From contig CALKWM010000039.1 in NCBI GenBank assembly GCA_938004065.1, forward strand, positions 65,313-129,312: a stretch of DNA of 64,000 nucleotides, read 5' to 3'. Source of the DNA: an uncultured bacterium. GTDB lineage: Bacteria > Patescibacteriota > JAHJAL01. A program made the translations under genes and the position numbers. The notes below the pieces were generated by a model. It was not told the DNA's origin. It did no database searches and saw only the letters and a list, made by a program, of their open reading frames with translations. Shown piece by piece: positions 1,885 to 23,205 of this stretch (positions within the stretch are counted from its first letter, which is position 1; every line of letters begins with the position of its first letter).

Positions 1885-1980
1885 TTTTCTTATCTCTCAT
1901 CCTTGGAATTGACATCCGCCTAGGGTGGGTCTCGATATCTTTGGATGCATACCATGTTATTTAGCACTACGTATTATTAA
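1885..1980. repeat. Degenerate copy of a MITE-like intergenic element (family also at 3381-3635 and 23066-23205)
   Basis: Shares the T-run + atctCtcatccTTGgaat start, a ccgccTAgggtgg GC hairpin, a ggatGcataccat block and the terminal tttagcactacGtatTAt with the other copies. Ends about 12 bp before the zwf ATG. Confidence 0.55.
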
Positions 1981-1992
1981 ATAAATTTAGAT

Positions 1993-3375
1993 ATGTCCTC
2001 TCAAAAAAATCCGGTTGAATTTGTACTTTTTGGTGCCAGTGGTGATCTGTCACGGGAAAAAATATATCCCGCTTTATTCAACATTTTTGATCCCCAAAAT
2101 CCCTTTTCCTACGTCGGTTATTCTCGCACCCAATTTTCCGCCGATGAATTTGAAAAATTGGTCCGGGAAGCGGTCATCAAAAAATACCCGCATGCCAACA
2201 GGCAGAAATTAACACAATTTGCTCAACGTTTTCGATACATTAGCGGTTCCTATGACACTGATGGTATCGCCCGGTTAAAGTCCCATCAAAAAAATCTCTT
2301 CCGCTACTATTATTTGGCCATCCCATCTGATTTTGCTTTGATTAAAAATGTCGTTGATGGTCTGAAAAAAAATCAGTTAACTCAAAAAAGTATAATTGTT
2401 CTCGAAAAGCCGTTTGGTACTGATTACAATTCCGCCAAACAGTTAAATAACTTTTTGCTAAAGTATTTTCCGGAAGAAATGATCTATCGCATTGATCACT
2501 ACCTGGCCAAAGATCTGGTACAGGATATGCTGGCGTTGCGCTTTGCCAATCCGATTTTTGTTCCCATTTGGAACAACCGCTACATCCAAGACATCACCAT
2601 CAATATCATGGAAAAAGACGGCATCAGAAATCGCGGCCAATACTATGAAAATTCCGGCGCCATCAAAGATATGATTCAAAATCATGCCCTGCAACTATTG
2701 GCCTTGACCTTGATGGATATGCCCAAGAGTCTGTCCGCTCTCGATATTGATCTGGCCAAAACCAATATTTTAAAAAAACTAAAATTATATAAACATGACC
2801 AACTGGCTCCGGTAACCATCGGACAGTATGAGGGATATCGCCGGGAAAAATTTGTTGCTCCCCAATCTATGGTTGAAACTTTTGTCTCGATGATTGTGGC
2901 AGTCGATAGCGAAAAATGGCGCGGTGTCCCGATCCGCATTGTCTCCGGCAAAAAAATGCCACAAAAAACCACCGACATCATCGTCAATTTTAAAAATATC
3001 GATCATTGTTTGTGGAATAAAGGTCAATGCAAAATTTTAAATAACCAAATCCGGATAAATATTCAACCGGATAATGATATTCATCTGCGGCTCAATTCCG
3101 AATTTGATCCCATCTCCAAATGTGCCAATCCCACCGTATTACGTTTTGGTTACCAGGACAACAAATATATTTTGAAAGACTCATACGAAAATGCTTTGCA
3201 AGATTTATTTCACCAAGATCGATTTACTTGTACCAATTCCAGTGAAATATTGTTATCTTGGAAATTTATCGATGAACTAATGCAAAATCTAGCCAACGAT
3301 AGAAAAAATAATTTGCTTATTTATAATGCAAAAAACATCGACCGGATAATCAAAAAGCAGATTATTCACCAATAG
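1993..3375 (+). CDS. zwf: Glucose-6-phosphate 1-dehydrogenase
   Basis: FGASGDLSREKIYPALF (NADP-binding), EKPFGTDYNSAKQLN, RIDHYLAKDLVQDMLALRFANPIF and EKDGIRNRGQYYENSGAIKDMIQNH are canonical G6PD motifs. Confidence 0.92.
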   Translation: MSSQKNPVEFVLFGASGDLSREKIYPALFNIFDPQNPFSYVGYSRTQFSADEFEKLVREAVIKKYPHANRQKLTQFAQRFRYISGSYDTDGIARLKSHQKNLFRYYYLAIPSDFALIKNVVDGLKKNQLTQKSIIVLEKPFGTDYNSAKQLNNFLLKYFPEEMIYRIDHYLAKDLVQDMLALRFANPIFVPIWNNRYIQDITINIMEKDGIRNRGQYYENSGAIKDMIQNHALQLLALTLMDMPKSLSALDIDLAKTNILKKLKLYKHDQLAPVTIGQYEGYRREKFVAPQSMVETFVSMIVAVDSEKWRGVPIRIVSGKKMPQKTTDIIVNFKNIDHCLWNKGQCKILNNQIRINIQPDNDIHLRLNSEFDPISKCANPTVLRFGYQDNKYILKDSYENALQDLFHQDRFTCTNSSEILLSWKFIDELMQNLANDRKNNLLIYNAKNIDRIIKKQIIHQ

Positions 3376-3380
3376 TTTAA

Positions 3381-3635
3381 ATTTATGAGTAGTGCTAATT
3401 ATTTTTTTTATCTGTCATCCTCGAATCGATCCGCCTTGCCTGCCCGCCTTGGGTGGGGGCGGACGATAACTTGTCCGCCTCGGGCGGATCGGGGATCCAT
3501 ACCATATTTCTTAATTTATGAGTAGTGCAAAATAATTTTTTCCTGTCATCCTCGAATCTAAAGCGAGTCATCGAGCGCTTAGATATCGGGGATCCATACC
3601 ATATTTCTTATTTTTATTTAGCACTACTCATAAAT
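3381..3635. repeat. Two tandem MITE-like elements (units about 3381-3513 and 3514-3635) with terminal inverted repeats atttatgagtagtgc / gcactactcataaat
   Basis: Each unit is atttatgagtagtgc + T-run + (a)tc(c)tgtcatcctcgaatc + a variable GC-rich hairpin core + cggggatccataccatatttctta. The array ends with the inverted terminus tttagcactactcataaat 3 bp before the ATG at 3638. Cores contain ccgccttgggtggg and ccgcctcgggcgg hairpins. Confidence 0.7.
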
Positions 3636-3637
3636 TT

Positions 3638-5101
3638 ATGAAGACGAAAAAATTTACCATTCTCCATTCCAATGATATGCACGGTGACTTTCTGGCGGAG
3701 GCGGCGGCCGGCCAAGGTGAAATGATCGGCGGACTGGCTTTGTTGTCCGGATATATCAACCAAGTCCGCCGGGAAGAAGAAAATGTCTTGTATGTAATTT
3801 CCGGGGACATGGTCCAAGGATCTTTGATTGATTCCGAATACAAAGGCATTTCGACAATGGAAATCATGAATTATCTCTCTCCCGATGTGGTATCTTTGGG
3901 CAATCATGAATTTGATTATGGCTTGCCCCATCTATTATTTCTGGAAAAGATGGCCAATTTTCCGATAGTAAATGCCAATCTCTATATCAAAAAATACCAC
4001 AAACGTTTGATGCAACCTTATTTGATTATAAAAAAAGACGGTTTTGATATTCTCTTTACCGGCATTATTACTGAAAAAGTGATGGACTCGATCAGCCAGG
4101 ACAAATTGATCGGCAGTTTTGTAACCCTCGAAGAAGCCAGCGCCGAAGTTGGTAAGATTACCAACGCTTACAAAAAAGACGATATCGATTTAACTATTTT
4201 ACTGACTCATATTGGCTTTGAATCAGACTTGGAATTGGCCGGCATGCTCAAACCGGAATGGGGAGTAGACATGATTATCGGTGGACATTCGCATACGATT
4301 TTGGAAAAACCGGCCACAGTAAACAATATTTTAATTGCTCAAGCGGGGGTGGGCACCAATCAGATCGGTCGCTTCGATATCGTTGTCGATGATGACACCA
4401 ATAGTATTGTTGACTGGAAATGGCAACTGATCCCGATCAATGAAAAAATAGCCGAACCCGATCAGGAATTATTGGTTTATATTGACTCATACAAAAAAGA
4501 AGTAGATCGCAAATTCAATACTCTGATTGCCAAACTCGCCGGTAAATTGACTCACCCGGCTCGAGAAATTGAGACCAGTTTAGGCAATTTTGTCGCCGAT
4601 GCTTTTGCCGAAACGGCCGAATGCGATGTTATGTTCGTTGGTTCCGGCTCCATCCGTACCAAGGAACTTGGTCCCAAAGTAACGTTGGGTGATTTGAATG
4701 AATGTTTTCCTTACGACGATAGCTTAACCAGATTTACGATCGATGGTACTACCCTCAAACAAATATTTGCGTATATCATGCGACCGGAAAATCGTGATGG
4801 TGAAGGTGAATGTTATCAAGTAAGCTCCGGTATTGCCGCGGTATATGATGATAAAACCAAATCCCTGTCATCTTTGTCATACAAAAATAAACCGGTCAAA
4901 GACTCCGGTTGTTATCGAATTTGTCTGCAAGGTTATCATGTTAGCCAGGCGGCAAATTATCTGGGAGTTAGTGAAGAAATATTGCGAGAATCGGGGCAGG
5001 CCAAAGTCATCGCTACCTCCGCCAAAACCGTTTTGGAAGAATATGTAAGAAATCATCAAAACCAAAATTCCCAAATTGAAGGGCGCTTGGTCTATCGATA
5101 A
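3638..5101 (+). CDS. Bifunctional metallophosphatase/5'-nucleotidase (UshA family)
   Basis: N-terminal calcineurin-like phosphoesterase motifs (HSNDMHGD, GDMVQGS, GNHEFDYG, GGHSHT) followed by a 5'-nucleotidase C-terminal domain. Confidence 0.8.
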   Translation: MKTKKFTILHSNDMHGDFLAEAAAGQGEMIGGLALLSGYINQVRREEENVLYVISGDMVQGSLIDSEYKGISTMEIMNYLSPDVVSLGNHEFDYGLPHLLFLEKMANFPIVNANLYIKKYHKRLMQPYLIIKKDGFDILFTGIITEKVMDSISQDKLIGSFVTLEEASAEVGKITNAYKKDDIDLTILLTHIGFESDLELAGMLKPEWGVDMIIGGHSHTILEKPATVNNILIAQAGVGTNQIGRFDIVVDDDTNSIVDWKWQLIPINEKIAEPDQELLVYIDSYKKEVDRKFNTLIAKLAGKLTHPAREIETSLGNFVADAFAETAECDVMFVGSGSIRTKELGPKVTLGDLNECFPYDDSLTRFTIDGTTLKQIFAYIMRPENRDGEGECYQVSSGIAAVYDDKTKSLSSLSYKNKPVKDSGCYRICLQGYHVSQAANYLGVSEEILRESGQAKVIATSAKTVLEEYVRNHQNQNSQIEGRLVYR

Positions 5102-5106
5102 AATTT

Positions 5107-6921
5107 TTAACTTTTTCTCTGCTCGTGTATCAACATATCAACCGCCTGCTCCATCGATCCGGCCTCGACAATCCGGCCATTGTTGACAAAAAATATCACG
5201 TCCGCCTTGGCGATAGTATTTAGCCGGTGAGCGATAATCACCCGTATCGTTTTTTTAGGTAATTTGTCCAATATCTCTTGTAATAATTGTTCGGTCATCG
5301 TATCGATATTGGCGGTGGCTTCATCCAAAATCAACAAATCAGGTTGACGCAAAACCACTTGGATAAAAGCTATTAACTGTTTCTGACCGTGGCTGACACT
5401 GTCATCCCCCGGTTTTATTTGCGTTTCCAATCCATCGTTGAACCGATCCAATAATTTTTTTAGTCCCGCTTGTCGCAATATCTCCATCAGTTTTTCCGGG
5501 GTGGTATCCTGGCACAAATTATTACCATAAACGATGTTCTCGCGTAAAGAGCCGGTAAATAAAAATGGTTCTTGTAAAATATATCCGATTTTCTGCGTCC
5601 GCTCCTCTGGTTTGTAGGATCGAATATCCCGACCGCCAAAATATATCGTTCCGTTCGTTGGATCATAAAGTCGGGCCATCAGAGAAGCGGTAGTTGTCTT
5701 CCCGCCACCGGTCGGACCGACAAAAGCGTACGTTTTACCTGCTTCTAAATTGAAATTGATATTGCTTAAAACTTCTTTGCCATCAGGATAAGCAAAACTG
5801 ACATTTTTGAAAGTAATCAAATTTTCGGTCGAAACACTTTTTACCCCGATGTTTTTTTCAATCAGTAAATTATTTTTTAGTTCCAAGATATTTACTATCC
5901 GATCCCAACCGGCCAAGGCCACTTGAAAACCGGCCCACAATGAAGCCATCTGCCTCAATGGTGTATAAAAAATATTTACGTAAGCCAAATAACTCACCAA
6001 CCAACCGATAGTAAATTGGCCATTTCCAATAAGATATAAACCCAACATCAAGACGCCAAATTGTCCCAAATGAGCCAACAATCCGTATGTCGGGATAAAA
6101 ATATTGTTGGCCATTCCGGCCAAGATGGCCGATTGATAGTTTTGTTTGTTGACGAGGTCAAACTGTTTTTGAAAATAATCCCGCCGATTATAGGCCGCAA
6201 TCACCTTGAAATTGTCCAAGCTTTCTTGAATCTCAGCACTCATTCCGCCCGTATTTTGTAAACTTAAAGCATTGCGATTTTTAACCCAAGGCGACACCAA
6301 TCTGGTAAAAATCAGTAAAAACAAAGTTGGTATAAGTGCTACCAAACCCATCAGTGGATTGATCACTAACAGCAGTATCGCCGCACCGATCATGATGAAA
6401 ATATTGCCGACAAACTGCATCAGGGTTTGGGAAAAAAATTGGTTCAATTTATCACTATCGTTGTTTATCCTGGATATCAAATCTCCGGCTTTATTTTGGT
6501 TAAAAAAAGCTATCGGCAAATCCTGCAATTTGGTGAAAATGGCGTTTCTAAGTTCATATAACGCTTTTTGTCCGACAGTTCCCATCTTGATAGTCTGCAG
6601 ATAATTGGCCAAAAAAGCCAAGATAAAAAGAACCAACAATATTGCCGAATAAACCAACACACCATCAAAAAGTTTTTGTGATATGAAGCGATCAACCGCT
6701 TGCCCGATCAACACCGGCGCCATCAAATTGAGAACCGAATTCAAAATTATCGCTACTCCCGCCCAGATCAAATCTCGTTGGCTGGATTTCAAAAAAAGCC
6801 ACATGCTTTTCCAGGATCCGTATATTGAGGATTTAGAAACCTTATTTTCCTGATTGTTTTTTTGATTAAGATCGTAATTCATAACTACTGGTACTTTGTT
6901 GTGATTGATATATTTGAGCAT
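5107..6921 (-). CDS. ABC transporter, fused permease/ATP-binding subunit (MsbA/multidrug-exporter type)
   Basis: Six-TM N-terminal domain, Walker A GPTGGGKTT, ABC signature VSHGQKQ, Walker B LLILDEATANID. Confidence 0.85.
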   Translation of the reverse strand: MLKYINHNKVPVVMNYDLNQKNNQENKVSKSSIYGSWKSMWLFLKSSQRDLIWAGVAIILNSVLNLMAPVLIGQAVDRFISQKLFDGVLVYSAILLVLFILAFLANYLQTIKMGTVGQKALYELRNAIFTKLQDLPIAFFNQNKAGDLISRINNDSDKLNQFFSQTLMQFVGNIFIMIGAAILLLVINPLMGLVALIPTLFLLIFTRLVSPWVKNRNALSLQNTGGMSAEIQESLDNFKVIAAYNRRDYFQKQFDLVNKQNYQSAILAGMANNIFIPTYGLLAHLGQFGVLMLGLYLIGNGQFTIGWLVSYLAYVNIFYTPLRQMASLWAGFQVALAGWDRIVNILELKNNLLIEKNIGVKSVSTENLITFKNVSFAYPDGKEVLSNINFNLEAGKTYAFVGPTGGGKTTTASLMARLYDPTNGTIYFGGRDIRSYKPEERTQKIGYILQEPFLFTGSLRENIVYGNNLCQDTTPEKLMEILRQAGLKKLLDRFNDGLETQIKPGDDSVSHGQKQLIAFIQVVLRQPDLLILDEATANIDTMTEQLLQEILDKLPKKTIRVIIAHRLNTIAKADVIFFVNNGRIVEAGSMEQAVDMLIHEQRKS

Positions 6922-8620
6922 ATTCCGGACAGGTGGACAGCAATTGTTCGTGCCGACCGCTGGCGATCATTTCCCCCTCCATTAACAAGACAATTTGCTC
7001 ATAATGCTCGATGGTGGATATCTTTTGCGTCACCGAAATCAAGGTGATATGCGGATAATTTTTTTGAATATTTTGGAGAATTTTTTGTTCGGTTTGGTTG
7101 TCCACTCGAGCAGTAAAATCGTCCAGCAACAATATTTTTGGATTGAGAGCCAATGCTCTAGCCAGCATGATGCGCTGTTTTTGGCCACCAGATAAACTGG
7201 TTCCTCTCTCAGAGATGATCGTTTCCATTTTATCCGGCAGAGAATCGATGAACTCATCCAATTCGGCGGTTTGAATAGCTTTAATCATTGCATCATCGTC
7301 GATTGTATCGCCAAATGAAATATTTTCGCGCAAACTTAAATTGAACAATACGCTATCCTGAAAAACCAGACCGATTTGACGGTGCAAGCTATTCTGTTCA
7401 TGTTCCGATACATCAATACCATCGAAAAGTATTTTACCAAAATCAGGTTTGATTAATCCAATCAAAAGATACACGAGTTGCGTTTTACCGGCCGCGGTCG
7501 GTCCGATAATAGCCGTTTTGCTACCGGCCGGGAAATCTATCGTTACTTTTTTTAGTACCGTTTTTGAACCATAAATTTTGCTCACCTGTTCCAATCTTAA
7601 ATCGCCCCGTAATCTGTTTTTATTGTTTCCGTTTTCGCAGGGTACAGGTTGGTTCAATATCTCATCGATGCGTTCATAAGAGGCGGTTGCCTGGGCGATC
7701 AAGTTGCTCATAAAACCAATAATAATTATCGGAAAAATTAATATTGATACATAGTTCATAAAAGCAGTAAAATCACCTAGAGACAATTGATCGGAAATAA
7801 CCAGCTTTCCACCCAGAGCCAGGATAATTAATATAGTCAAATTGGCCACCAGAGAAATAATCGGAATCATCGTGGCAAATAATTTCAGAATTTCCATCCC
7901 CAGATTTTTAGCTTCCAAATTGGCCGACAAAAATTTATAGTACTCCGTTTGCTGGGAATTAAGCACTCTGATCAAACTTGCTCCCAAAATGCTTTCGTTA
8001 ATAGTCTGATTGAGACGATCGAGGATCTCCCTGGCTTTGGTAAACAATGTTTTGATCCGGCCAAAAATGACCGCAAAAGTCAGTCCGATAATCGGCACGA
8101 CTGCCAACACCGCCAAAGCCAACCGCCAATTCATGTAAATCAAGATAGTACTAACACCCAATATCACAAACAAGGAAGAGACAATCGATACTATTGCTTG
8201 GCCAACGAACATTTTAATCGAATCGATGTCAGCCGTCAGATTGGTCAGCAATCTGGCAGTTGTTTTCTCTTGGATAAAGGCGAAATTTTGATACGAAATT
8301 CGTTCGATTAATTTTTGCCTCAAATCTCTGGCCACTCTCTCTGACGCGATAGTCTGGACTATACTTTGCAGATAAAACAGGACAAAAACTCCGATCGCTG
8401 TTATACCAAAATACCAGCCGGTTTGTCGCATATCAAATACGCCCGCGGTAAAATCATCAATTGCCACGGCGATTATTTTTGGCACTATCAGATTGAGCGC
8501 ATTACTCAACAACGCCAGTACAATTAACAAAACTATCCACCAGGCATACGGTTTAAGTAAATCAATCATTTTACTCCAGGAATTATTCCTGTTATTGGTT
8601 TTGATAGCTGTTTTTTTCAC
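6866..8620 (-). CDS. ABC transporter, fused permease/ATP-binding subunit (partner of 5107-6921)
   Basis: TM domain + Walker A GPTAAGKTQ + signature LSGGQKQRIMLARAL. It overlaps the downstream paralog by 56 bp, the typical heterodimeric exporter arrangement. Confidence 0.85.
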   Translation of the reverse strand: MKKTAIKTNNRNNSWSKMIDLLKPYAWWIVLLIVLALLSNALNLIVPKIIAVAIDDFTAGVFDMRQTGWYFGITAIGVFVLFYLQSIVQTIASERVARDLRQKLIERISYQNFAFIQEKTTARLLTNLTADIDSIKMFVGQAIVSIVSSLFVILGVSTILIYMNWRLALAVLAVVPIIGLTFAVIFGRIKTLFTKAREILDRLNQTINESILGASLIRVLNSQQTEYYKFLSANLEAKNLGMEILKLFATMIPIISLVANLTILIILALGGKLVISDQLSLGDFTAFMNYVSILIFPIIIIGFMSNLIAQATASYERIDEILNQPVPCENGNNKNRLRGDLRLEQVSKIYGSKTVLKKVTIDFPAGSKTAIIGPTAAGKTQLVYLLIGLIKPDFGKILFDGIDVSEHEQNSLHRQIGLVFQDSVLFNLSLRENISFGDTIDDDAMIKAIQTAELDEFIDSLPDKMETIISERGTSLSGGQKQRIMLARALALNPKILLLDDFTARVDNQTEQKILQNIQKNYPHITLISVTQKISTIEHYEQIVLLMEGEMIASGRHEQLLSTCPEYAQIYQSQQSTSSYELRS

Positions 8621-8899
8621 GATATTAACATTATAACCCCGTTTGGTCGCTAATGAATAATGAATAATTAAGAATTAATTGAGAAACAAAAATTAGGTAT
8701 AATTAAACCGTTAAACATTAATTAACAACAAAAACATCAAATATTAAAAATATTTTTTTAAAATAAATTTCATGCAAATAATATTTGATGCGATTTTCGG
8801 TATGAAATTATTTATTTATATTATTTTTTAAATTATTTATTATTGCATAGTGCCAATTATTTTCCTCATTTGTTATCCTTATTAATTACCAATTTTAAA

Positions 8900-9652
8900 A
8901 TGTCTCAATACTATCAAGCCAACCGAGCCAGAAATATTTATAACCCCAAAGATAAAACACCGTTCAAATTATCCCGCTCTAAAATCGACTTATTTGTCGA
9001 ATGCCCCCGCTGTTTTTACCTCGATCGTCGCCTGGGAGTGGGTCGCCCGCCGGGATTTCCTTTTAGCTTGAATTCCGCGGTGGACAAATTGCTCAAGCAG
9101 GAATTTGATATTCATCGCCGTCATCAAACTACTCATCCTTTGATCGAAAAATACGGTATTGATGCTCATCCGGTAGCACATGAACAACTGGAACAATGGC
9201 GGGAAAATTTTGTCGGGATTCAATACTTGCACCAGCCAACAAATCTGACAATAACCGGCGCAATCGATGATCTTTGGATCAATTCGGCAAATGAATACAT
9301 CGTAGTGGACTACAAATCAACCGCCAAACAAGAACAAATTACCGCTCTCAATCAAGACTGGCACACCGGCTATAAACGGCAGATGGAAATATATCAATGG
9401 CTGCTTCGTCAAAATGGTCTCAAAGTATCCGACATCGGCTATTTTGTCTATTGCAATGGTCGTACCGATCGGGAAGCTTTCGATGGCAAACTGGAGTTTG
9501 ACATTACCTTGATCGCTTATGAAGGCCACGATGCTTGGATAGAACAAGTGCTTAATGATATTTATGCCTGTCTGCAATCATCCGATATCCCGCCTGCCCA
9601 TCCGGATTGCGACTATTGTGCGTATGTTACCGCCAGGCAAAGTTATAAATGA
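8900..9652 (+). CDS. PD-(D/E)XK family nuclease with Cas4/RecB-like Cys cluster
   Basis: N-terminal CPRCFY and C-terminal HPDCDYCAY (CxxC...CxxC) flank a core with a VVDYKST motif (D...E/D-x-K). The start is probably ATG 8900 (MSQYYQ) rather than the track start at 8843. Confidence 0.55.
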   Translation: MSQYYQANRARNIYNPKDKTPFKLSRSKIDLFVECPRCFYLDRRLGVGRPPGFPFSLNSAVDKLLKQEFDIHRRHQTTHPLIEKYGIDAHPVAHEQLEQWRENFVGIQYLHQPTNLTITGAIDDLWINSANEYIVVDYKSTAKQEQITALNQDWHTGYKRQMEIYQWLLRQNGLKVSDIGYFVYCNGRTDREAFDGKLEFDITLIAYEGHDAWIEQVLNDIYACLQSSDIPPAHPDCDYCAYVTARQSYK

Positions 9653-9705
9653 TAAAATATCTGGTAGTTATTATTTTTATAACGGTTTAGCAAAATATCA
9701 CATCA

Positions 9706-10245: not shown

Positions 10246-10312
10246 ATATTTGATTTTCTTTTTTTGTCGTCAATTCTCCAAATATTTTTTTAGAGATTTT
10301 TTTGCATAAAAA

Positions 10313-10352
10313 ATAGGTAATCTTGAAAAAATAATTACCTACTTTATTTTTT
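10313..10352 (+). terminator. Rho-independent terminator downstream of 9706-10245
   Basis: Stem ataggtaat/attacctac followed by ctttatttttt. Confidence 0.5.
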
Positions 10353-12889: not shown

Positions 12890-13127
12890 CTTAACTCATC
12901 CTTTCTAATCGCTTAAAATCTATTTTTAAAGAACCAAAATATCGACAGTATGCATTATAACACCTATTTTCATTATTACTTAATCTTAAATTAATCTTAA
13001 ATTAAGCTAGAAAATTGAGGCATTTTTTTTGCATACTAGAAACTGCCGGCACAACACCGGCAGTTTCATTCGAACAAACAATAATAAATTAAATCACTAA
13101 ACTAATTGTTCATTGCATATTTGCGCC

Positions 13128-13160
13128 CGAGGCGCACCCGCCTTGGGCGGGGAACCTTGA
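13128..13160. repeat. GC-rich double-hairpin REP-like element (gcgccCGAggcgc + cccgccTTGggcggg)
   Basis: Two adjacent perfect 5/6-bp GC palindromes directly 3' of the stop of 13163-15445. Near-identical to the element at 22304-22333 in opposite orientation. Confidence 0.6.
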
Positions 13161-15445: not shown

Positions 15446-15489
15446 TATTTTTTGTTTTTATTCTTATTTATATTGATATTTAAATAAAA

Positions 15490-17493
15490 TTATTCAATTC
15501 CGAAAAAATTCAAAACCTTTTGCACCAGATCTTTTAATTGATCAATTAACTGTTCAAAAATTGACAATTGTCTTGACAGTTCCTCAGCTTCAATCGCCGG
15601 TTTCTGATGTTCCCACCAGACTTTAACCGCCGCTTTGTGGCCCTCTTCATAATATCGGACAGTAACAGTATGGTATCCGGCCGATAAGTGTGTTAAGTCG
15701 GATATATGAGTATTTCTAGGTTGTGGATACCATTTATAAATTAGGTTATCGGTATCATCCAATATCACTTTCACTCCATCATCAGCGGTTGCTTTAAACA
15801 GATAGTCGCCCTCACCGAAGTAAAATTCACCTCTCCAGATGGCAGATACATTGTCAGTATATGTAACTCCATCCAGACCGGTGATAATTTTCTCTGTTCC
15901 CCAGTCATGATCTATCCGATTTCCTAAAACCATCTCTCCTCCCAATACAGTTGATTGATCAGGAAAATCAACTTTGTCATCAATTTTACCTTTGTAGTAG
16001 CAACCATGAAATTTTTCTTCCGGTACTTCGGTACATTTTGGAGTGCCACTGTCAGCTGTAACTTTTGGCATCTCGAGCATGGAGGAGTAATCGATCCATT
16101 CACCATTTGTTATTTCATCATCTTTGTCTTTCAAAGATGACTCATCGTCACTCTCGTCCTCTTTGTCTGCTATTTCCTCTTTTTTTTCATCTTCATCAAC
16201 TACTATTTGTTTTCCATCTTCGTCACTGATAATAGTCAAACCATTTGTTTCGCTGGTGGAAATATAGACTCGAGCCATTTTACTTTCTCCGGTGTATAAA
16301 GAAGATTTGTCGCCACTGGTACATGTAATCTGGTATAAATTCGTACCGGCGCCAATTTTAATATCTTTTTTACCGGACGATGACAAATCGCCCAATGGCC
16401 AATTATTCATTTCTTGACCATCACTTTGGCAATATTTAAAAATAGATGAATCGGCTTCCCATTCCAAGGTAGCGGTTTTTCCCTTGGTGAAAACTTCCAT
16501 TGTACCCATATTGTCCTTGGTCATCACTTGATTGGCAGTGTCATAAGTATAATCAAAACCTTTTCCGCTCACTTTGTATGTTTTGTCTCCCACTTTCATA
16601 GTTAATTTCAAAGGATCACTGGATTTTGATAAATCAGTGGAAGGAGTTTCACTTGGTGCATCACTACCGCCTTCAATATTGTAAAACAAAATCTGCATAT
16701 TAGCAGTTTTTTGTTTATACACTGCCACATTATTATTATCCCAACAAGCTAATACTATATTTTTATCTTTAGAAAGATCAAAAGATGCTTGTCCCTCTGG
16801 TTTCATTCTTTTTGATTTTACACTATAATCAGGATAACCAGGAATCAAATTATTTTTTGTTACTTCTTCATAAACGTTTTCTCGTACATAGTTGCCTAAC
16901 TCAGTAGCCCCAAACCAACAATCACTTATGTTATCAGTATTATATTTCCATGATATTGTTCCAGTTGTCACCGGTGTATCGATATATGTATATTTATATG
17001 ACTGATTACCTATCGCTCCTTGTCTACCAACTTTATAACTCTTATTATTCATTGTTATTTCCAAAGTTACATCATCGTCAGTTTTACTGGAATCGAAAGA
17101 TGGCGTTTCGCTCAAAACAACCGGCTCGCTGGTATCGATTTGAATTTCGATCATATTGCTGGCATGGGCGGTAGCAATAGTGTTAACAGCGGTTTCCGTA
17201 ATCATACTGCAACCAATTTGAAATCTATTTTGATGTCTTATGTGCTCGATAGTTTTTGATCCTGTCGCTTCTGTAATCAATTCACCATCCCAGTCATAAC
17301 ATTTCATGCCACCACTCAACAAATTGGCATCCATTGTCCAGCTCAATGTTAACGGATCATTAAATTTTACTTTGGTAGCCGACGCTTCCAGTTTGATCAA
17401 TTCACCAACTGAGGCGTGACTGACTGCCGAAATAAACACAATTGCCGCAACGGGCAATATCAAATACAACCATTTCACAATTTTTGTTTTCAT
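15490..17493 (-). CDS. Secreted PA14-domain surface protein, paralog of 13163-15445
   Basis: Signal peptide. Acidic linker. C-terminal EEKFHGCYYKG...SAIWRGEFYFGEGDYLFKATADDGVKVILDDTDNLIYKWYPQP (PA14-like). Same C-terminal tail FEQLIDQLKDLVQKVLNFFGIE as its neighbour. Confidence 0.7.
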   Translation of the reverse strand: MKTKIVKWLYLILPVAAIVFISAVSHASVGELIKLEASATKVKFNDPLTLSWTMDANLLSGGMKCYDWDGELITEATGSKTIEHIRHQNRFQIGCSMITETAVNTIATAHASNMIEIQIDTSEPVVLSETPSFDSSKTDDDVTLEITMNNKSYKVGRQGAIGNQSYKYTYIDTPVTTGTISWKYNTDNISDCWFGATELGNYVRENVYEEVTKNNLIPGYPDYSVKSKRMKPEGQASFDLSKDKNIVLACWDNNNVAVYKQKTANMQILFYNIEGGSDAPSETPSTDLSKSSDPLKLTMKVGDKTYKVSGKGFDYTYDTANQVMTKDNMGTMEVFTKGKTATLEWEADSSIFKYCQSDGQEMNNWPLGDLSSSGKKDIKIGAGTNLYQITCTSGDKSSLYTGESKMARVYISTSETNGLTIISDEDGKQIVVDEDEKKEEIADKEDESDDESSLKDKDDEITNGEWIDYSSMLEMPKVTADSGTPKCTEVPEEKFHGCYYKGKIDDKVDFPDQSTVLGGEMVLGNRIDHDWGTEKIITGLDGVTYTDNVSAIWRGEFYFGEGDYLFKATADDGVKVILDDTDNLIYKWYPQPRNTHISDLTHLSAGYHTVTVRYYEEGHKAAVKVWWEHQKPAIEAEELSRQLSIFEQLIDQLKDLVQKVLNFFGIE

Positions 17494-17803
17494 CTAATTT
17501 TTTATTTTTATATAATTATTACAAATCCATTGATTATACTATATTGTGTAAAAAAATGCAAGCTCTATGTCAAAAATCAAATTACGATCGGTAAAAACAA
17601 ATAAAATATATGATAGAAATATCTGGATAAATCCTAAATAAACTTAAACAATACATATTTTTTTTAATAAAAAAAATTTACAATCAATAATTCTTTTCTC
17701 ATTACATTTTTAAAAATGAAATATATATTTCACATAGTATTGTAATGTTTGCGCTATTTGTGCGTTATAATAAAATCACCAATACTTATTTTTCAATTTA
17801 TTA

Positions 17804-18517
17804 ATGCAAAACACATCCAAAAGAAATTTGCTAATCTGGCTTGGCGTAGGATTAATCGGGCTACTCGTTTTTTTGGCACCGATAATATTTCCGATTGATA
17901 TGATGAATGGCGGTGGGGCCATGATCATGGTCGGAATTTTGTTTGCCATCACCGGTCCGATTGTGGCCATGCTTTACTATCATCGCGCTCGCGTTTTCGA
18001 TCAGTTGATGGACGAAAACAAATTGCTGGCACATTTCAAATATCACCAAATCGAATGGCAGCGTTTTGCCGAAGATGAAAAAAAATTCCGTAGCGGTGAG
18101 CAACGCGGTATGCAATTTATTGTCTTGTTTTTTTCAGTAATATTTGGCGGACTTTTCTGGTATTTCGACCCGGAATCGGGATGGGTGGTGGCATTGGTAT
18201 TGTTTTTTGTTAACTTATTGATCATGGGAGTGGTATTTCTAAACAATCGCAGTTATGAACGCTTGGCCAATGAGCCAGATGTCGAATGTCGAGTTGGTGC
18301 CAATGGTTGTTTATTGAACAATCAACTTCACGTCTGGGTCGGGTGGGGAGCCCGATTTGAAGGCGCTCGCACCAATATGGGCAATATCAATATTCTGGAA
18401 ATTGTTTACTCCACACCCAACCGTTACTCAAGACAGTATTATACAATCAGAATCCCCATTCCCACCGGTCTGGAAAAAACAGCCGATGAAGTTGTCAAAA
18501 AATTATCATCACAATAA
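17804..18517 (+). CDS. Hypothetical membrane protein
   Basis: 237-aa ORF with 4 hydrophobic helices. No motif recognised. Confidence 0.4.
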   Translation: MQNTSKRNLLIWLGVGLIGLLVFLAPIIFPIDMMNGGGAMIMVGILFAITGPIVAMLYYHRARVFDQLMDENKLLAHFKYHQIEWQRFAEDEKKFRSGEQRGMQFIVLFFSVIFGGLFWYFDPESGWVVALVLFFVNLLIMGVVFLNNRSYERLANEPDVECRVGANGCLLNNQLHVWVGWGARFEGARTNMGNINILEIVYSTPNRYSRQYYTIRIPIPTGLEKTADEVVKKLSSQ

Positions 18518-18657
18518 ATTTCAATCGGTTGTTTCAATTTTTTTCAATCACAAATAAAAATTTCATAATATTCAAACTAATCCCTTTTAAAAAACCCGGA
18601 CCTGTTCAGTCCGAGTTAAATATTTGATGCCCTGATTGATTTTATTTTAAAAAAAAT

Positions 18658-18987
18658 TCACCCGCTCATTCGCATAAATTCAGCTAACAATTCAGAAAAG
18701 GTGATATTCTTAGCTTTTTTTCTTTCTATCATATAGTTTGCCTCATTTTCATCATATCCGCAAAGTAAATACATCTCCACTATTTCCTCGCTGGTCAGAT
18801 CAAGAACGGCAACTATTGACCACAACAGATATTTTGAAGGTCGATTTTTTCCTTTTTCCAGATTTCCGATATGTGTATCCGAAACACCTGTCTTGATTGA
18901 CAATTGTCTTCTGCTCTTGATTCCTGATCTAAGGCGCATATTAGTGAGCATTTTCCCGAAGGCCTTCAGATCTTTCTTGTCTTTCAT
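18658..18987 (-). CDS. XRE-family helix-turn-helix transcriptional regulator
   Basis: LTNMRLRSGIKSRRQLSIKTGVSDTHIGNLEKGKNRPS is a Cro/C1-type HTH. Confidence 0.6.
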   Translation of the reverse strand: MKDKKDLKAFGKMLTNMRLRSGIKSRRQLSIKTGVSDTHIGNLEKGKNRPSKYLLWSIVAVLDLTSEEIVEMYLLCGYDENEANYMIERKKAKNITFSELLAEFMRMSG

Positions 18988-19127
18988 GCCAATCCCTCCA
19001 AATTGTTAATGTTATAAAAATCATATACATATCAGTCAGTCCCAGTCAACCAATTGCCTATTTTAGAAACATTCAGACATCAAAAAAAATAACCCCAAAA
19101 TAATCGGAGTTATGTAAAAATTTGTCA

Positions 19128-20156
19128 TTAAAATGTTATTTTAAACATCGCCAACCCCACCCTTCTTTCACCCACCAGTAAATATTTCCCACAAGGTGAA
19201 AAGGCCAGCGACGTTATATTGTCGATCGATAAATTTTGTAGTATCGTCTCTTTTTTCCAATCGACAAGATTTAGATTGCATTCGACACCATTTGCTTTTT
19301 GAGAATACCCGCTGTAGACAATGTATTTCCCGGTATTATCAAATACGATATTAACTGGGTTATCTTCGCGGTTGAAAATTAATTTTTTTGTTAGAACACT
19401 ATTTTCAAACTGTATTGATTTGTGGCCGGCCCAGTTTTTTTTCAATATCTTCAGCTCGTCCGGACAAACACAGGCCAGATACCTATTGTTTGGTGAAAAA
19501 GACATCCGACAACAACTGGCCAAGATTTTCAAAATCCGGTCTTTCTTGTAATCCCACATCCATGTGCCATTTGAGTAATGTTCACTCTTGTTTGGTCCAA
19601 ATGACACCAACAGTATTTGATTGGAAGAAAAAATCATATCAATGATTTTCATACTGTAGGCGCCATAGTTCCATGAATTATATGGGCGATACCCATGTCC
19701 TTTTGTAATATAAAATATATCAGTAGCGCTTTTATCATCTGAATATTCTCCAAAATGATTCAACGCCAGATATGTTTTATAATTGTCCTGTGACTGGCGG
19801 TAACTGACCATACTCGTTGACAAAAAAGTATCTGCAATACCACCCAGATCAATCTCCCCCATTTTCCAGACCCGTTCTCCAAACTCATACAACTCGTACA
19901 ATTTGGAATTGGAAGTGGTAAAAAATATTCTACCGTTTTGATTGATCGTCAAATTCTTAAAAAATTGACCTTTCCCTTCCTCACTGCACATACTAAAAGT
20001 ATGTACACGATCCATTGCCGGCCATGTCCAGACATTGATTTCGGTTATGCAGGCACTAATCATGTATTTCCGATCCTTGGTCCACGCCATACTATGGACA
20101 CCCCAGCCATTTTTGTGACATTCCACAAATTCGTCAAATAACAGTCGCATCCGCAT
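19128..20156 (-). CDS. Hypothetical beta-propeller (WD40-like) repeat protein
   Basis: Repeated segments of the SxxxDxxYLxxG/W type (e.g. LAFSPCGKYLLVGERR, YMISACITEINVWTW). 342 aa, no enzymatic motif. Confidence 0.4.
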   Translation of the reverse strand: MRMRLLFDEFVECHKNGWGVHSMAWTKDRKYMISACITEINVWTWPAMDRVHTFSMCSEEGKGQFFKNLTINQNGRIFFTTSNSKLYELYEFGERVWKMGEIDLGGIADTFLSTSMVSYRQSQDNYKTYLALNHFGEYSDDKSATDIFYITKGHGYRPYNSWNYGAYSMKIIDMIFSSNQILLVSFGPNKSEHYSNGTWMWDYKKDRILKILASCCRMSFSPNNRYLACVCPDELKILKKNWAGHKSIQFENSVLTKKLIFNREDNPVNIVFDNTGKYIVYSGYSQKANGVECNLNLVDWKKETILQNLSIDNITSLAFSPCGKYLLVGERRVGLAMFKITF

Positions 20157-20316
20157 TCCTCCTTCGTATTGTTAAAGATACCTAAAATATAATTCCAGAT
20201 AGAATTATTGTCAATAATAAACAATATTTTATCCTCATATTTTGATATGCTATAAATGCCCCTTTTAAATTGTTCCAATTCATTTTTTTCACTTTTCTTA
20301 TCACTTACTTTTAACC

Positions 20317-21537
20317 ATGACCACCATCAAATGCGTTCAATGCGGACACGAAATTGAAATCACTGAAGCGCTCAAAAAAGACATCGAACAGCAAATTGCT
20401 GCCGATTTGAACAAAAAATACCAAACCGAAATCGAAAAAATCAAACAAACCAATGCCGATTTGATCGAAAAAACCAAATCCGAGATCAGGCAAAAAGCAA
20501 TTTCCGAAGCGCAGAAAGCATATGAAGCCAAAATCAAACAAACCAAAGAACTGGCCGCCGAACAGGAGAAACAAAATCTGTCTTTGCAAAAAGAGCTTTC
20601 CGAAACCTTAAAATCACTCCGTTTGGCCCGCGACGCCGAAGGGAAACTGAAAATCGAATTTGAGAAAAAACTACTCTTTGAACAGGAAAAAATCAAACAA
20701 ACCGCCAAGCAGGAATTTGAGAGCGAACAAAACATGAAAATGGCGGAAAAAGACAAAAAAATTCAAGACATGGAAAAACAGGTGATGGAAATGAAACGCA
20801 AGCTGGAACAAGGATCCCAACAAACCCAAGGTGAAGTTTTGGAACTTAAATTGGAAGAAGCTTTAAAAAATGAATTCCCGTTTGATGAAATCAGTGAAGT
20901 ACCCAAAGGTATCCGTGGCGCTGATATCATTCAGACAGTTAGAACTCGTGGCGGATTGATTTGTGGTACTATCGTTTGGGAATTAAAAAACACCAAAAAT
21001 TGGTCGCCTTCCTGGGTGCAAAAACTGGTGGAAGATCAGCGTGCTCTGAAAGCGGAATTGGCAATTTTGATTTCCAACGCTTTGCCGGAAGGAGTAAACA
21101 ATTTTGGCCAAATGGACAAAATTTGGGTTAGCAATCTCACCTCTTCAATACCACTTTGCCACGCTCTCCGGCAACAACTGATGGGAATTAAAAACTCGCA
21201 ACTGGCCAATGAAGGCAAAGCCACCAAAGCCGAATCGGTTTACAACTATCTGATTGGCAATGATTTCAAACAACGCATCGAAGTTTGGGTGGAATATTTT
21301 CGTACTCGCAAAGAAGAAATCGATAAAGAACGCATCTATTACAACAAACGATGGGAAAAAGAGGAAAAAAATATCATCAAAGTGATGGAAAATACCGCCG
21401 GCATTTATGGCGATCTGCAAGGTGTGATCGGTAACGCTCTACCAAAAATCGACTATCTCGAACTACCCGGGGAGGTGGAAGAAGGAGATTCGGGAGAAGG
21501 CGACGGGGTAAAAAAAGACGAGCGGTTGTTTTTCTAA
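20317..21537 (+). CDS. DUF2130-family protein: N-terminal zinc ribbon, long coiled coil, conserved C-terminal domain
   Basis: CVQCGHEIEI ribbon. Roughly 170 aa of K/E/Q-rich heptads. C-terminal GADIIQTVRTRGGLICGTIVWELKNTKNWSPSWVQKLVEDQ resembles the DUF2130 core as recalled from memory. Confidence 0.5.
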   Translation: MTTIKCVQCGHEIEITEALKKDIEQQIAADLNKKYQTEIEKIKQTNADLIEKTKSEIRQKAISEAQKAYEAKIKQTKELAAEQEKQNLSLQKELSETLKSLRLARDAEGKLKIEFEKKLLFEQEKIKQTAKQEFESEQNMKMAEKDKKIQDMEKQVMEMKRKLEQGSQQTQGEVLELKLEEALKNEFPFDEISEVPKGIRGADIIQTVRTRGGLICGTIVWELKNTKNWSPSWVQKLVEDQRALKAELAILISNALPEGVNNFGQMDKIWVSNLTSSIPLCHALRQQLMGIKNSQLANEGKATKAESVYNYLIGNDFKQRIEVWVEYFRTRKEEIDKERIYYNKRWEKEEKNIIKVMENTAGIYGDLQGVIGNALPKIDYLELPGEVEEGDSGEGDGVKKDERLFF

Positions 21538-21659
21538 CCATTTAACAATTTAGCATTTCCTTTAGATATTCCAATATAGCAATTGCATTCATAATTTTTA
21601 ATTTTGAATTATTCTATAGTATATTTAAATCAGACGAAACATATTTAAACAAAATCACT

Positions 21660-22238
21660 ATGAAGCATATCAAGACACTACATTTTTCCCTTGTTGTGTT
21701 TTTTGTGTTTTCGTTCGCCGGCTGTGTCCCTTCAAAAGTCCAAAAACCGGATGGTTCAATCCTCGACCAGTCCGTTATTTCGCAAATCAATCAAGACAAT
21801 TACTGGCAATATCTGACCAACGCCGATGATGGCAAATTTCAGGAAATCGAACTGGAAGCTTCTGATTACAATTGGGATAATTATTTACGATTGTGTGGCG
21901 GACTTTGGCCCCGTGGCTATGTTTTGATTGATGAATACGATCAGACGATATCCCAACAGACCGAGCTTCCCAGTTATCTAAACAATATTAAATCCCCGGA
22001 AGAAGCCATAGCTTACATTTACGCCACCAACTGTTATCTTTCTCCAGAGTTTGGTCAATACCGGCAATTTGTCAACAAACTTGATGACGGTTATCTGGTA
22101 TCGGTTATCGCTTACAATTTTATCGGTTGCGGCAATCATGCCCACCGGCAATTAAATTTTTCACTCAAACCCACCGGTGAGTGGCATTTGTTGAGTGATA
22201 TCAAGCTGGAAAAAGGAGAAGAATTTTGTGGAGACTAA
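21660..22238 (+). CDS. Hypothetical lipoprotein
   Basis: Signal peptide with lipobox FSFAGC. 192 aa. Confidence 0.45.
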   Translation: MKHIKTLHFSLVVFFVFSFAGCVPSKVQKPDGSILDQSVISQINQDNYWQYLTNADDGKFQEIELEASDYNWDNYLRLCGGLWPRGYVLIDEYDQTISQQTELPSYLNNIKSPEEAIAYIYATNCYLSPEFGQYRQFVNKLDDGYLVSVIAYNFIGCGNHAHRQLNFSLKPTGEWHLLSDIKLEKGEEFCGD

Positions 22239-22303
22239 ATTAATTACCAATTATCAATATCCAATTAAATCGCAAACAAAAAAATTTGATACGTTTGATA
22301 ATT

Positions 22304-22333
22304 TCCGCCCAAGGCGGATGCGCCTAGGGCGCA
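22304..22333. repeat. GC-rich double-hairpin REP-like element (ccgccCAAggcgg + gcgccTAGggcgc)
   Basis: Opposite-orientation copy of 13128-13160. Flanked by an 8-bp direct repeat (tttgataa at 22291-22298 and 22338-22345) resembling a target-site duplication. Confidence 0.6.
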
Positions 22334-22445
22334 GATAGGTTTGATAAGTTTAATTTATTTATTTATCAATATTCCCATATTTTCTCGCAATGTTTAGAAA
22401 GGCATGTAATAGTTTATACCAATTTTATTCTTAAAAAAATATTCA

Positions 22446-23051
22446 ATGAAAAAAATCCTGACCCTTATTTTATTTGCCTTAACCGGCTGTCAAATTGTTC
22501 CCACTTCTCCCGATTACGCCCAAAATCAACTAGGCGACTTATTTGATAACAGTGGTAGTGATTATGTTTCCGAATTAACCACCGACCCGGATGGTTTTGT
22601 CCGTTTTCCCGGTGAACCGACTCGGGAATCGAAAGATTACTATATAATTGAAGATATTTGTGGCCAATTTACCGCCGAATTTATCGAGGGAATTACCGGT
22701 CGTGAAGTGGTAAACGCTGAAAATCCTTTGTCCGATACCAACATTTACACCTGTCATTATACATTTGCCGGTGAAGACAGTGCCGGTTTATTGTTAGTTT
22801 TGGATTATTTGTCGATTGAAAATCAAAAAAAAGGTCAGGAAATGATGGATCGCACTACTAAAGAAGAACCATCAATCCCCATGCGGAACATGGTTGCATA
22901 CCAGGAAGATGGCAACATCAACACCATATATTTGATTTTGGATGACAATAAATTTATCACCGTTCATCGCGGTTCCGGTTCCAAACTGAGCAATGAAGAT
23001 GTTTTAGGATACGCTGTTAAAATTGCTCAAAAAATCAAGAATTATAAATAA
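22446..23051 (+). CDS. Hypothetical lipoprotein
   Basis: Signal peptide + lipobox LTGC. 201 aa. Confidence 0.45.
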   Translation: MKKILTLILFALTGCQIVPTSPDYAQNQLGDLFDNSGSDYVSELTTDPDGFVRFPGEPTRESKDYYIIEDICGQFTAEFIEGITGREVVNAENPLSDTNIYTCHYTFAGEDSAGLLLVLDYLSIENQKKGQEMMDRTTKEEPSIPMRNMVAYQEDGNINTIYLILDDNKFITVHRGSGSKLSNEDVLGYAVKIAQKIKNYK

Positions 23052-23065
23052 ACCAATTGTTCTAG

Positions 23066-23205
23066 TTTTTTTATCTGTCATCCTCGAATCGATCCGCCCT
23101 GGATGGACGATAACTTGTCCAGTGAATCTGTCCGGCGAATGCTTGTGATGCAGGATCGGGGATCCACATCAAATTATTTATCTTTATTTAGCACTACTCA
23201 TAAAT
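23066..23205. repeat. MITE-like intergenic element (same family as 3381-3635)
   Basis: tttttttatctgtcatcctcgaatcgatccgcc...ggacgataacttgtcc...ggatcggggatcc...tttagcactactcataaat. Ends 20 bp before the ATG at 23226. Confidence 0.7.

Follow-up and report, generated by a model that had tools for sequence, protein, structure and literature searches.

A lineage-specific composite repeat in a Candidatus Moranbacteria genome, probably built on a divergent hairpin of the CGTC/dRS3/NTS-SRM class

Introduction

The 64,000-nucleotide stretch of DNA analysed here (hereafter the window; positions 65,313 to 129,312 of contig CALKWM010000039.1, assembly GCA_938004065.1, from an uncultured member of the Patescibacteriota) contains a family of short dispersed repeats, and it raises the question of what kind of element this is and why several of its copies stand directly before start codons. 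[quoted passage not shown] We contend, with a probability of roughly three in four, that the repeat carries a hairpin of the class known as CGTC repetitive extragenic palindromes (CGTC REPs), dRS3 and NTS-SRM, that the genome has its own gene of the Ssn type, and that the hairpin is surrounded by a shell specific to the lineage. The element is a lineage-specific composite on a divergent, long-topped hairpin of this class; its place beside start codons is incidental, and it is no device for supplying gene leaders.

Prokaryotic REPs are split into a GTAG-tagged and a CGTC-tagged superfamily (Di Nocera et al., 2013, PMC3733652). CGTC REPs carry the tag CGTC, often TGTC (or CCTC), a stem that almost always opens with A-T and then T-A, and a CCA tail; their stems have 8-9 bp and their loops 4-5 nt (PMC3733652). 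They lie near the 3' ends of open reading frames (ORFs) in co-directional and convergent spacers, some being intragenic, they come without an associated transposase and they are reported never to flank tyrosine transposase genes (PMC3733652). Neisseria dRS3 (CGTC-1) and the Rickettsia elements RPE-4 and RPE-6 belong to this superfamily (PMC3733652). The oriented form of dRS3 is NTS, CGTCATTCCCGCGMAVGCGGGAATCYRG, the substrate that SsnA, a single-domain GIY-YIG protein of 94 aa, binds and cuts (PMC11893778). The Ssn family as a whole comprises such endonucleases of some 94-100 aa. SsnA cuts only single-stranded DNA and only one strand, a few nucleotides upstream of the NTS; binding depends critically on the C that follows the palindrome and cutting on the three nucleotides that precede it, while the loop is dispensable and its extension is tolerated (PMC11893778). 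Across phyla, ssn genes are typically bracketed by SRM motifs, and the layout in N. meningitidis is NTS-ssnA-NTS (PMC11893778).

The repeat family and its hairpin

The original proposal of a dispersed family whose members have terminal inverted repeats and a core hairpin is borne out. Three clear copies, A (3381-3513), B (3514-3635) and C (23066-23205), and one decayed copy, D (1885-1980), share the blocks that had been described, and the joint pattern GTCATCCTCGAATC..TCGGGGATCC matches three times in the window against 0.00 expected from shuffled sequence. Exact CTGTCATCCTCGAATC is found at three sites in the window (3412, 3543 and 23075), exact ATCGGGGATCCA also at three (3488, 3585 and 23155), and exact GCACTACTCATAAAT at four, of which 3381 and 3514 are inverted and 3621 and 23191 direct. 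Copies A and B are arranged as a head-to-tail tandem whose units are parted by an inverted terminus, as had been noticed, namely by GCACTACTCATAAAT inverted at 3514. The blocks are placed as first described, but the common architecture is not complete in every copy: among the window copies only B has both termini, A has a left terminus and is then followed directly by B, and C and D have a right terminus and no left one. The parts of the four copies are the following.

1881-1980, + strand: copy D, decayed; it fills the pgl-zwf spacer (1868-1992)
1895-1898, + strand: tag TCTC of copy D after its T-rich run, with stem remnants ATCC (1899-1902) and GGAT (1943-1946)
1960-1978, + strand: degenerate right terminus TTTAGCACTACGTATTATT of copy D, which also has an inner CCGCCTAGGGTGG hairpin and a GCA tail
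3381-3395, - strand: left inverted terminus of copy A (ATTTATGAGTAGTGC on the + strand), starting 5 nt past the zwf stop codon
3413-3499, + strand: hairpin of copy A, preceded by a run of eight T, with tag TGTC, stem ATCCTCGA / TCGGGGAT with T.G wobble, and tail CCA
3514-3528, - strand: left inverted terminus of copy B, adjoining the tail spacer of copy A
3544-3596, + strand: hairpin of copy B, TGTC, ATCCTCGA ATC TAAAGCG..CGCTTA GAT A TCGGGGAT, CCA
3617-3635, + strand: right inverted terminus of copy B, TTTAGCACTACTCATAAAT, ending 2 nt before the ATG (3638) of the 5'-nucleotidase gene
23063-23075, + strand: T-rich run of copy C, starting 12 nt past the stop codon of an upstream 201-aa ORF
23076-23166, + strand: hairpin of copy C, tag TGTC, stem ATCCTCGA / TCGGGGAT, tail CCA
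23187-23205, + strand: right inverted terminus of copy C, parted by 20 nt from the ATG of the 937-aa ORF that follows

The original prediction missed both that the two conserved boxes pair with each other and that the hairpin belongs to the CGTC/dRS3/NTS class. The 5'-ATCCTCGA box pairs with the TCGGGGAT-3' box over eight pairs, one of them a T.G wobble; this stem is preceded by an unpaired TGTC after a T-rich run and is followed by CCA. Between the arms lie interiors of 60 nt (A), 26 nt (B) and 64 nt (C) that are mutually unrelated. The interiors of A and B extend the helix or branch, the branched 60-nt top of A including CCGCCTTGGGTGG, GGACGATAACTTGTCC and CCGCCTCGGGCGG, and the 64-nt interior of C, common to copies H and I described below (GATAACYTGTCCAGYGAAYCTGTCCGGCGAATGCT), is mostly unpaired. 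The stem of copy D has two mismatches. Around the hairpin stands an AT-rich shell with ATTTATGAGTAGTGC at its left and GCACTACTCATAAAT at its right; the inverted termini have 15-24 nt and the unit of hairpin and shell 120-140 nt, and the outer inverted repeat of the tandem pair (3378-3401 and 3615-3638) has 24 nt and is 96% complementary.

Folding and covariation across the copies had been suggested as a check. Copy A reaches -50.1 kcal/mol as RNA (z -3.6) and -24.3 as DNA (z -3.7; its complement, -20.4), copy B including its termini reaches -41.1 kcal/mol as RNA (z -7.3), and the pairing of the inner helix is kept across copies through G-C/T-A/C-G and A-T/G-C changes. Copies C and D do not fold better than shuffled sequence, copy D giving -5.0 kcal/mol with DNA parameters (z 0.1). 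With the same parameters the tag strand outfolds its complement in A, B, C and D. Among the 23 distinct hairpins collected, the tag strand is the better folder in 21, the tag is TGTC in 22 and CGTC in one, and the stems open with A-T and then T-A. A surplus of G.T pairing on the tag strand, over and above the fixed basal wobble, was considered and set aside as weak, the raw count of 33 against 11 falling to about 16 against 11 once some 17 of the 33 pairs, forced by the search pattern, are discounted.

Further copies and their positions

About 30 kb of additional sequence from this genome yielded six more copies (E to J). They lie in three loci of the same strain, two of which (L001 and L127) are 100% and one (L130) 99.97% identical to the window and which carry it about 8.9 kb further upstream and about 8.4 kb further downstream.

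L001:7343-7417: copy E, upstream of gnd, with both termini and TGTCATCC and without hairpin
L127:1-34: copy G, a 3' arm without right terminus, cut by the end of the locus
L127:1040-1187, - strand: copy F, complete, between converging lipoprotein-like and PPDK-like genes
L130:2653-2745: copy J, sense, decayed, inside an ORF for an 846-aa two-module glycosyltransferase
L130:2850-2950: copy I, antisense, intact, inside the same ORF
L130:3421-3590: copy H, complete, between convergent genes

The ORF stays in frame through copies I and J, which divide its match to Pfam Glycos_transf_1. This stretch (L130:2653-2950) lies 4.9-5.8 kb past the window end, and its translated hairpin units resemble the Rickettsia palindromic elements found in proteins. 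Among the ten copies, a small sample, A, C, D and E stand in co-directional spacers, F and H in convergent spacers and I and J in frame within a gene, and seven copies are clustered within about 32 kb. In the window, the right ends of B, D and C do stand 2, 12 and 20 nt 5' of ATG codons, so that the claimed position holds for them; it fails for F and H between convergent genes and for I and J inside an ORF. The left ends, moreover, stand 5-14 nt past the preceding stop codons, as near as the right ends are to the ATGs; F and H lie within 30 nt of both flanking stop codons, the left end of F being 3 nt past the PPDK stop. The nearness to start codons follows from the short spacers between co-directional genes. 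Avoidance of divergent spacers was also considered: eight of 57 spacers are divergent and none of six sites falls into one (p ~0.4), which permits no claim.

That at least one copy is an insertion follows from the comparison with orthologous spacers, which had been proposed as a check and which came out in favour of it. In the relatives (L120-L126; zwf 71-75% identical), gnd, pgl and zwf stand in the same order and the pgl-zwf spacer has 3-6 nt (taa aat atg), as against 125 nt in the window, where copy D fills it. In a 76% relative (L129), a terminus-like TTAACACTACTCGTTAAAT stands 14 nt ahead of zwf; when its zwf upstream region was compared with copy D, the terminus-like 19-mer alone aligned, and there is no clear orthologous copy. 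Units are met in spacers directly past stop codons, at an operon junction and in frame within a coding gene. The Logan contig L001 starts within copy F and ends within copy A, and such breaks are the usual assembly mark of a dispersed repeat. No autonomous insertion sequence (IS) with these termini was found in about 94 kb of the strain, the only transposase in the window being that of a REP-associated tyrosine transposase (RAYT) gene treated below, and no consistent target-site duplication is readable at A, B, C, F or H, whose flanks are AT-rich. A search against Rfam, at gathering and at permissive thresholds, returned nothing in or near the copies, the sole match in the window being the transfer-messenger RNA (tmRNA).

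Hairpin and shell are separable modules, and each copy is a mosaic of both: the shell occurs without hairpin in copy E, and the hairpin without shell in I, J and the copies beside the ssn gene described below. In copy H the termini carry matching substitutions (GAGTTGTGC / GCACAACTT), which would suit binding of both ends by a protein as well as a requirement that the ends pair. The shell is absent from the copies of other organisms and is specific to the lineage; together with the hairpin it makes a MITE-like or NIME-like unit, for which CGTC repeats within larger palindromes and mosaic arrays are a precedent (PMC3733652).

Probable membership in the CGTC/dRS3/NTS-SRM class

With the CGTC superfamily the hairpin shares the tag CGTC/TGTC, the A-T and then T-A opening of the stem, the CCA tail and the lack of an adjacent transposase; the ten copies also show the published placement, at ORF 3' ends in co-directional and convergent spacers and, for some, in frame within a gene. 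Embedding in larger palindromes (as in H. neapolitanus) or in mosaic arrays (as in NIME) is likewise met there occasionally. The published 8-9 bp stem with a 4-5 nt loop is not found: the 8-bp basal stem encloses 26-64 nt and is the mere base of a much longer structure. The hairpin also differs in that Patescibacteria lie outside the five phyla of the earlier survey, and in that head-to-tail dimers such as A+B were called negligible there (PMC3733652); the supplementary files of that study contain none of these repeat sequences.

The flanks are TGTCAT on the 5' side and ATCCAT, ATCCAC or ATCCAG on the 3' side in A, B, C, F, H, I and all metagenome copies, and they agree with the published SRM flanks HGTCWY (5') and RNCYNB (3'). 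The likeness to the NTS/SRM-Ssn system consists in an oriented hairpin whose palindrome is preceded by (C/T)GTCAT and followed by ATC-C-A/G and whose loop is free to vary, in a small, motif-bracketed single-domain GIY-YIG gene in the same genome that keeps the spacing of Tyr, Tyr and Glu, and in canonical NTS-ssn-NTS units in other Patescibacteria (L136, L133). The conserved parts of the hairpin, namely the tag, the base of the stem and the C after it, are those critical for SsnA, while the interior varies; copy D, read directly against the published requirements (PMC11893778), no longer has either the GTC or the C that follows the palindrome, and its stem is partly gone. The differences are a stem ATCCTCGA/TCGGGGAT with a fixed T.G wobble as against the canonical ATTCCCGCG/CGCGGGAAT, an extra stem or branched insert of 26-64 nt as against a loop of at most 5 nt, and an inverted-repeat shell around about half of the window-type copies. 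The main text of the Ssn study makes no mention of Patescibacteria (PMC11893778). What is new relative to the published descriptions is the inverted-repeat shell with termini of 15-24 nt and the long, variable tops of the hairpins.

Relatives of the hairpin occur elsewhere. A scan of metagenomes for both arms with an interior of 6-66 nt gave nine contigs with GC contents of 0.30-0.47, and all nine have TGTC, the same basal stem, the bulged A, the ATC/GAT step and CCAG, a layout also found in copy B. Their interiors differ yet stay paired, as in G-C, T-A and C-G at the fourth inner pair; none of the nine has the inverted termini of the window type. These hairpins often form convergent pairs and often stand beside canonical GTCATTCCCGCGAAAGCGGGAATCC hairpins. 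Short versions occur in an alphaproteobacterial metagenome-assembled genome (MAG; L057), and an antisense copy lies between co-directional genes in another locus (L114). Viral contigs gave no match to the hairpin and none to the paired termini. A scan of genome contigs for the bare 16-mer gave about 109 matches, nearly all judged to be chance, and both arms only in L057.

A probable cognate gene of the Ssn type

Another locus (L115) encodes a 99-aa GIY-YIG protein (Pfam E 1e-14) between two inverted window-type hairpins; it was found by listing small ORFs beside hairpins, a regular-expression motif search having missed it. A database search with this protein led to P0123, a 72% identical protein of 100 aa with a Pfam GIY-YIG match. 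Its gene lies on DAIUKQ010000003.1 of GCA_036848155.1 (L134:10001-10303) and again in SRR6007447 (L135), and both of these also contain DNA 99.97-100% identical to the window. The source strain is a Candidatus Moranbacteria MAG, with the ssn gene on a contig other than that of the window. The hairpins around the P0123 gene are the following.

L134:9733-9786 and L134:10319-10372: hairpins TGTCATCCTCGA...TCGGGGATCCAG (TGTCATCCTCGACAAGAAAG..CTTCTTGATCGGGGATCCAG), flanking the gene
L134:9890-9948: hairpin ATTCTCGA...TCGGGAAT (TGTCATTCTCGA..TCGGGAATCCAG), about 50 nt upstream of the start codon
L134:12534-12583: an additional copy of the ATCCTCGAATC type

The Patescibacteria proteins P0136 and P0196 share 60-65% identity with P0123. 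The P0136 gene has a canonical NTS upstream and an inverted, near-canonical copy ending in CCAA downstream, and the P0196 gene is flanked by arrays of NTS-type TGTC/CGTC hairpins. In the alignment Y9, Y20 and E67 of P0123 are invariant, and their spacing, Tyr-11-Tyr-47-Glu, is that of Y6, Y17 and E64 in SsnA and is also kept in P0136 and P0196. The pair of proteins that forms the P0121/P0123 clade is accompanied by ATCCTCGA-type stems, and the more distant pair by canonical NTS. NCBIfam gave only weak GIY-YIG-type matches to P0123. In another genome (Candidatus Moraniibacteriota, GCA_002747515.1; L133:8926-10612), a 94-aa GIY-YIG gene stands amid dense arrays of canonical TGTCATTCCCGCGMAGGCGGGAATCCAG hairpins; these are interleaved with half-sites (TGTCATTCCC without its partner arm) and form a NIME-like array in a genome of the Candidate Phyla Radiation (CPR).

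By analogy with SsnA of N. meningitidis, the following sequence of events may be proposed. The hairpin would form only when the tag strand is single-stranded, as during replication, repair or DNA uptake; the Ssn protein would then bind it by way of the sequence of the stem and the C that follows the palindrome, and it would need the GTC before the palindrome and cut a few nucleotides upstream, which in this repeat would be inside the T-rich run. The top of the hairpin would be dispensable for Ssn, and this dispensability would explain why the basal stem, the tag and the tail are conserved while the interior varies. Action on one strand only, as single-stranded DNA, has indirect support in the better fold of the tag strand. 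Such cutting may restrict the entry of DNA, as it does in Neisseria, or may help the repeats to spread.

Several observations weigh against this assignment. Run as a regular expression over the window, L127, L130 and L134, the full SRM pattern, HGTCWYN(0-2)YYVSBRHN(0-5)WNVSBRGN(0-2)RNCYNB, matches no window-type hairpin; it does recover the canonical copies in L133 (11), L136, L113 and L114. The link between the ssn gene and the window rests on MAG binning and on co-occurrence in one sample, and the likeness of P0123 to SsnA was judged from published residue numbers. That P0123 cleaves long-topped hairpins is suggested by the SsnA analogy. The whole fold of copy C is no better than shuffled sequence (z 0.3 as RNA, -0.3 as DNA), although its basal stem does form. 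The shell has no counterpart at the ssn locus L134 and is left unexplained by Ssn. Finally, the four co-directional sites are all in sense orientation, which could instead speak for a function as RNA, a molecule that SsnA does not bind (PMC11893778).

A second repeat system and other features of the window

A RAYT-like tyrosine transposase gene lies at 56618-57169 on the - strand, with GTAG-tagged REP doublets at 56544-56612 and 57236-57343. A third such doublet (56835-56903) stands in frame inside the gene and adds 23 aa, and its removal raises the scores of both REP_Tyr_transpos and Y1_Tnp. The motif CCATATTTC occurs five times in 64 kb as against 1.4 expected, at 3502, 3599, 56578, 56869 and 57309; the first two directly follow the hairpins of copies A and B, and the other three lie within GTAG doublet spacers (TTGTATCCATATTTC).

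A 33-nt double GC hairpin (GCGCC..GGCGC beside CCGCC..GGCGG) is found at 13118-13150 and, inverted and 91% identical, at 22305-22337; each lies directly downstream of a gene, towards which the two are oriented alike. From the coordinates, contig 4 of GCA_036848155.1 is calculated to end near the first of them. Hairpins resembling CCGCC-NNN-GGCGG also occur within the tops of copies A, D, F and I. The stretch 28000-44000 has a GC content of 0.34, a reversed GC skew and a run of small ORFs without Pfam match, and it ends in a large serine recombinase gene (39658-41253) that at its 3' end overlaps the opposite-strand gene for tmRNA (41169-41581); the stretch is probably an element integrated at ssrA. 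The gene of a 23S rRNA intervening-sequence protein (41741-42094) comes next. Coding tandem repeats are present at 26404-26805 (150-nt units in a 597-aa ORF, 26192-27985) and at 60224-60902 (units of about 120 nt in a 595-aa ORF, 60107-61894). For the last ORF of the window, a database look-up returned no record.

Alternative explanations

The original prediction amounts to a MITE whose insertion is aimed at the place just before start codons and which provides unrelated genes with a 5' leader, perhaps also with a promoter or operator, as Correia elements do in Neisseria. The three right ends in the window 2-20 nt before an ATG fit it, as does the hairpin at L134:12534-12583, 12 nt from the start of a minus-strand gene; this latter hairpin, however, is antisense to the gene and has no shell. 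With MITEs and Correia elements the unit shares the size of 120-140 nt, the terminal inverted repeats, the AT-rich flanks, the intergenic location and the insertion relative to relatives, and it differs from them in having no readable target-site duplication, no parent IS that could be seen and no promoter consensus; its most conserved part is, moreover, an internal hairpin that also occurs without the termini, both here and in unrelated organisms. Copies between convergent genes (F, H) or inside an ORF (I, J) do not fit a leader function, and left ends are equally near to stop codons. The element was further said to replace the Shine-Dalgarno (SD) sequence; as only six of the 48 window genes have an SD-like motif at all (ORFs of at least 120 aa; GGAG, GAGG or AGGA within 20 nt of the start codon), the absence of one before zwf, the 5'-nucleotidase gene and the 937-aa ORF is uninformative. 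Most leaders in the window are plain AT-rich sequence, including the one before groEL. Copy D lies within a gnd-pgl-zwf operon that is transcribed without the element in relatives, and a TGGTATAAT box and an SD motif that belong to the gene after the partial copy G lie downstream of that element. A promoter in the copy at 23066-23205 could not be upheld: no site in any copy reaches the threshold of a sigma-70 scan, and the suggested TTAGCA-N16-TATTTT agrees with the hexamers at 8 of 12 positions by our own count. Nor did the likeness of the terminus to a CIRCE half-site withstand a search, which gave no TTAGCACTC-N9-GAGTGCTAA match with at most three mismatches; the partner termini are 78-213 nt apart and not at the N9 spacing of CIRCE, and the downstream genes are not chaperone genes. 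A CIRCE-like repeat, TTAGCAGTT-N9-ATCTGCTAA, does occur at 54362-54388, about 55 nt upstream of groES; it agrees with the consensus at 13 of 18 positions and was hence missed by the search with three mismatches. We regard the leader-supplying MITE as highly improbable. Higher, at the level of the merely unlikely, stands an RNA element selected by the host, that is, a hairpin in the 3' untranslated region or between cistrons that lends stability to the mRNA upstream or dampens read-through, a function suggested earlier for classical REPs. Each of the four co-directional sites, A/B, C, D and E, has the element in sense orientation directly past a stop codon, G.U pairs make the sense-strand RNA the better fold for A, B and D, and many REPs have been argued to act as RNA (PMC3733652). 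However, four of four sites in one orientation corresponds to no more than p ~0.06, no T-tract follows directly after the stem, a terminator scan was empty within the copies, wobble pairs suit a single-stranded DNA hairpin equally, and copies occur in frame within genes and in antisense, among them the L114 copy between co-directional genes. An RNA role could in any case coexist, as a side effect, with a hairpin of the NTS-SRM class.

That the repeat is a REP or REPIN mobilised by the RAYT at 56618-57169 appears very unlikely. The gene is there and, without its 23-aa insert, matches NCBIfam REP_Tyr_transpos (E 2e-16) and Pfam Y1_Tnp (26.8 bits; cut-off 23). All five CCATATTTC sites of the window fall within the two repeat families, the REP doublet spacer TTGTATCCATATTTC resembles the hairpin-less unit (TGTCATCC..ATATTTC), and GGACGATAACTTGTCC, which looks like a short version of the GTAG REP stem, is present in the cores of A and C; these resemblances were noticed post hoc. 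GTAG REPs with their RAYTs do resemble the present repeats in being short, oriented hairpins with an unpaired tetranucleotide tag that are thought to act as single-stranded DNA and that flank the gene of a cognate small nuclease, but their tag is GTAG and their enzyme an HUH tyrosine transposase, and the GTAG system of this genome (56544-57343) has an unrelated stem. The RAYT gene is flanked by GTAG-tagged GGACAGCA..TGCTGTCC doublets and not by TGTC hairpins, a search of all loci for its homologues found none near TGTC hairpins, and CGTC REPs are reported never to flank such genes (PMC3733652). Least probable of all is a set of passive target or recombination sites for a phage or an IS110-type recombinase, comparable to dRS3 and the Nf prophages, the AT-rich parts being NIME-like spacers. 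dRS3 is a known integration target, A+B form a head-to-tail array with AT-rich spacers and seven copies are clustered within about 32 kb; yet no IS110-type or phage integrase adjoins any copy, the only other recombinase in the window is the serine recombinase beside the tmRNA gene, and no hairpin is interrupted by mobile DNA.

Implications

A hairpin of the CGTC/dRS3/NTS-SRM class would bring together two separate descriptions of one class, the CGTC REPs and dRS3 in 2013 and NTS/SRM in 2025, both now tied to a CPR genome. As the published SRM pattern misses the window-type form, surveys of Ssn and SRM would undercount such repeats. For this MAG, the units explain long spacers, contig breaks, spurious small ORFs and odd inserts in proteins.

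It can be speculated that hairpin and shell form a non-autonomous transposon that the Ssn protein of the genome mobilises through single-stranded DNA, which we consider doubtful. The insertion into a 3-nt operon junction, the in-frame insertions into the glycosyltransferase gene, the derivatives without hairpin or without termini and the assembly breaks are compatible with recent mobility. The authors of the Ssn study merely raised the possibility that SRM-ssn-SRM is an IS-like system (PMC11893778). If mobilisation by Ssn took place, SRM-ssn-SRM would be a real system of this kind, and, no transposase having been identified for CGTC repeats, it would explain their spread.

The genomes of Patescibacteria are small, and foreign DNA is taken up by these bacteria. 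If that holds, a nuclease that acts on single strands and has dozens of sites in the genome could affect which incoming DNA is accepted.

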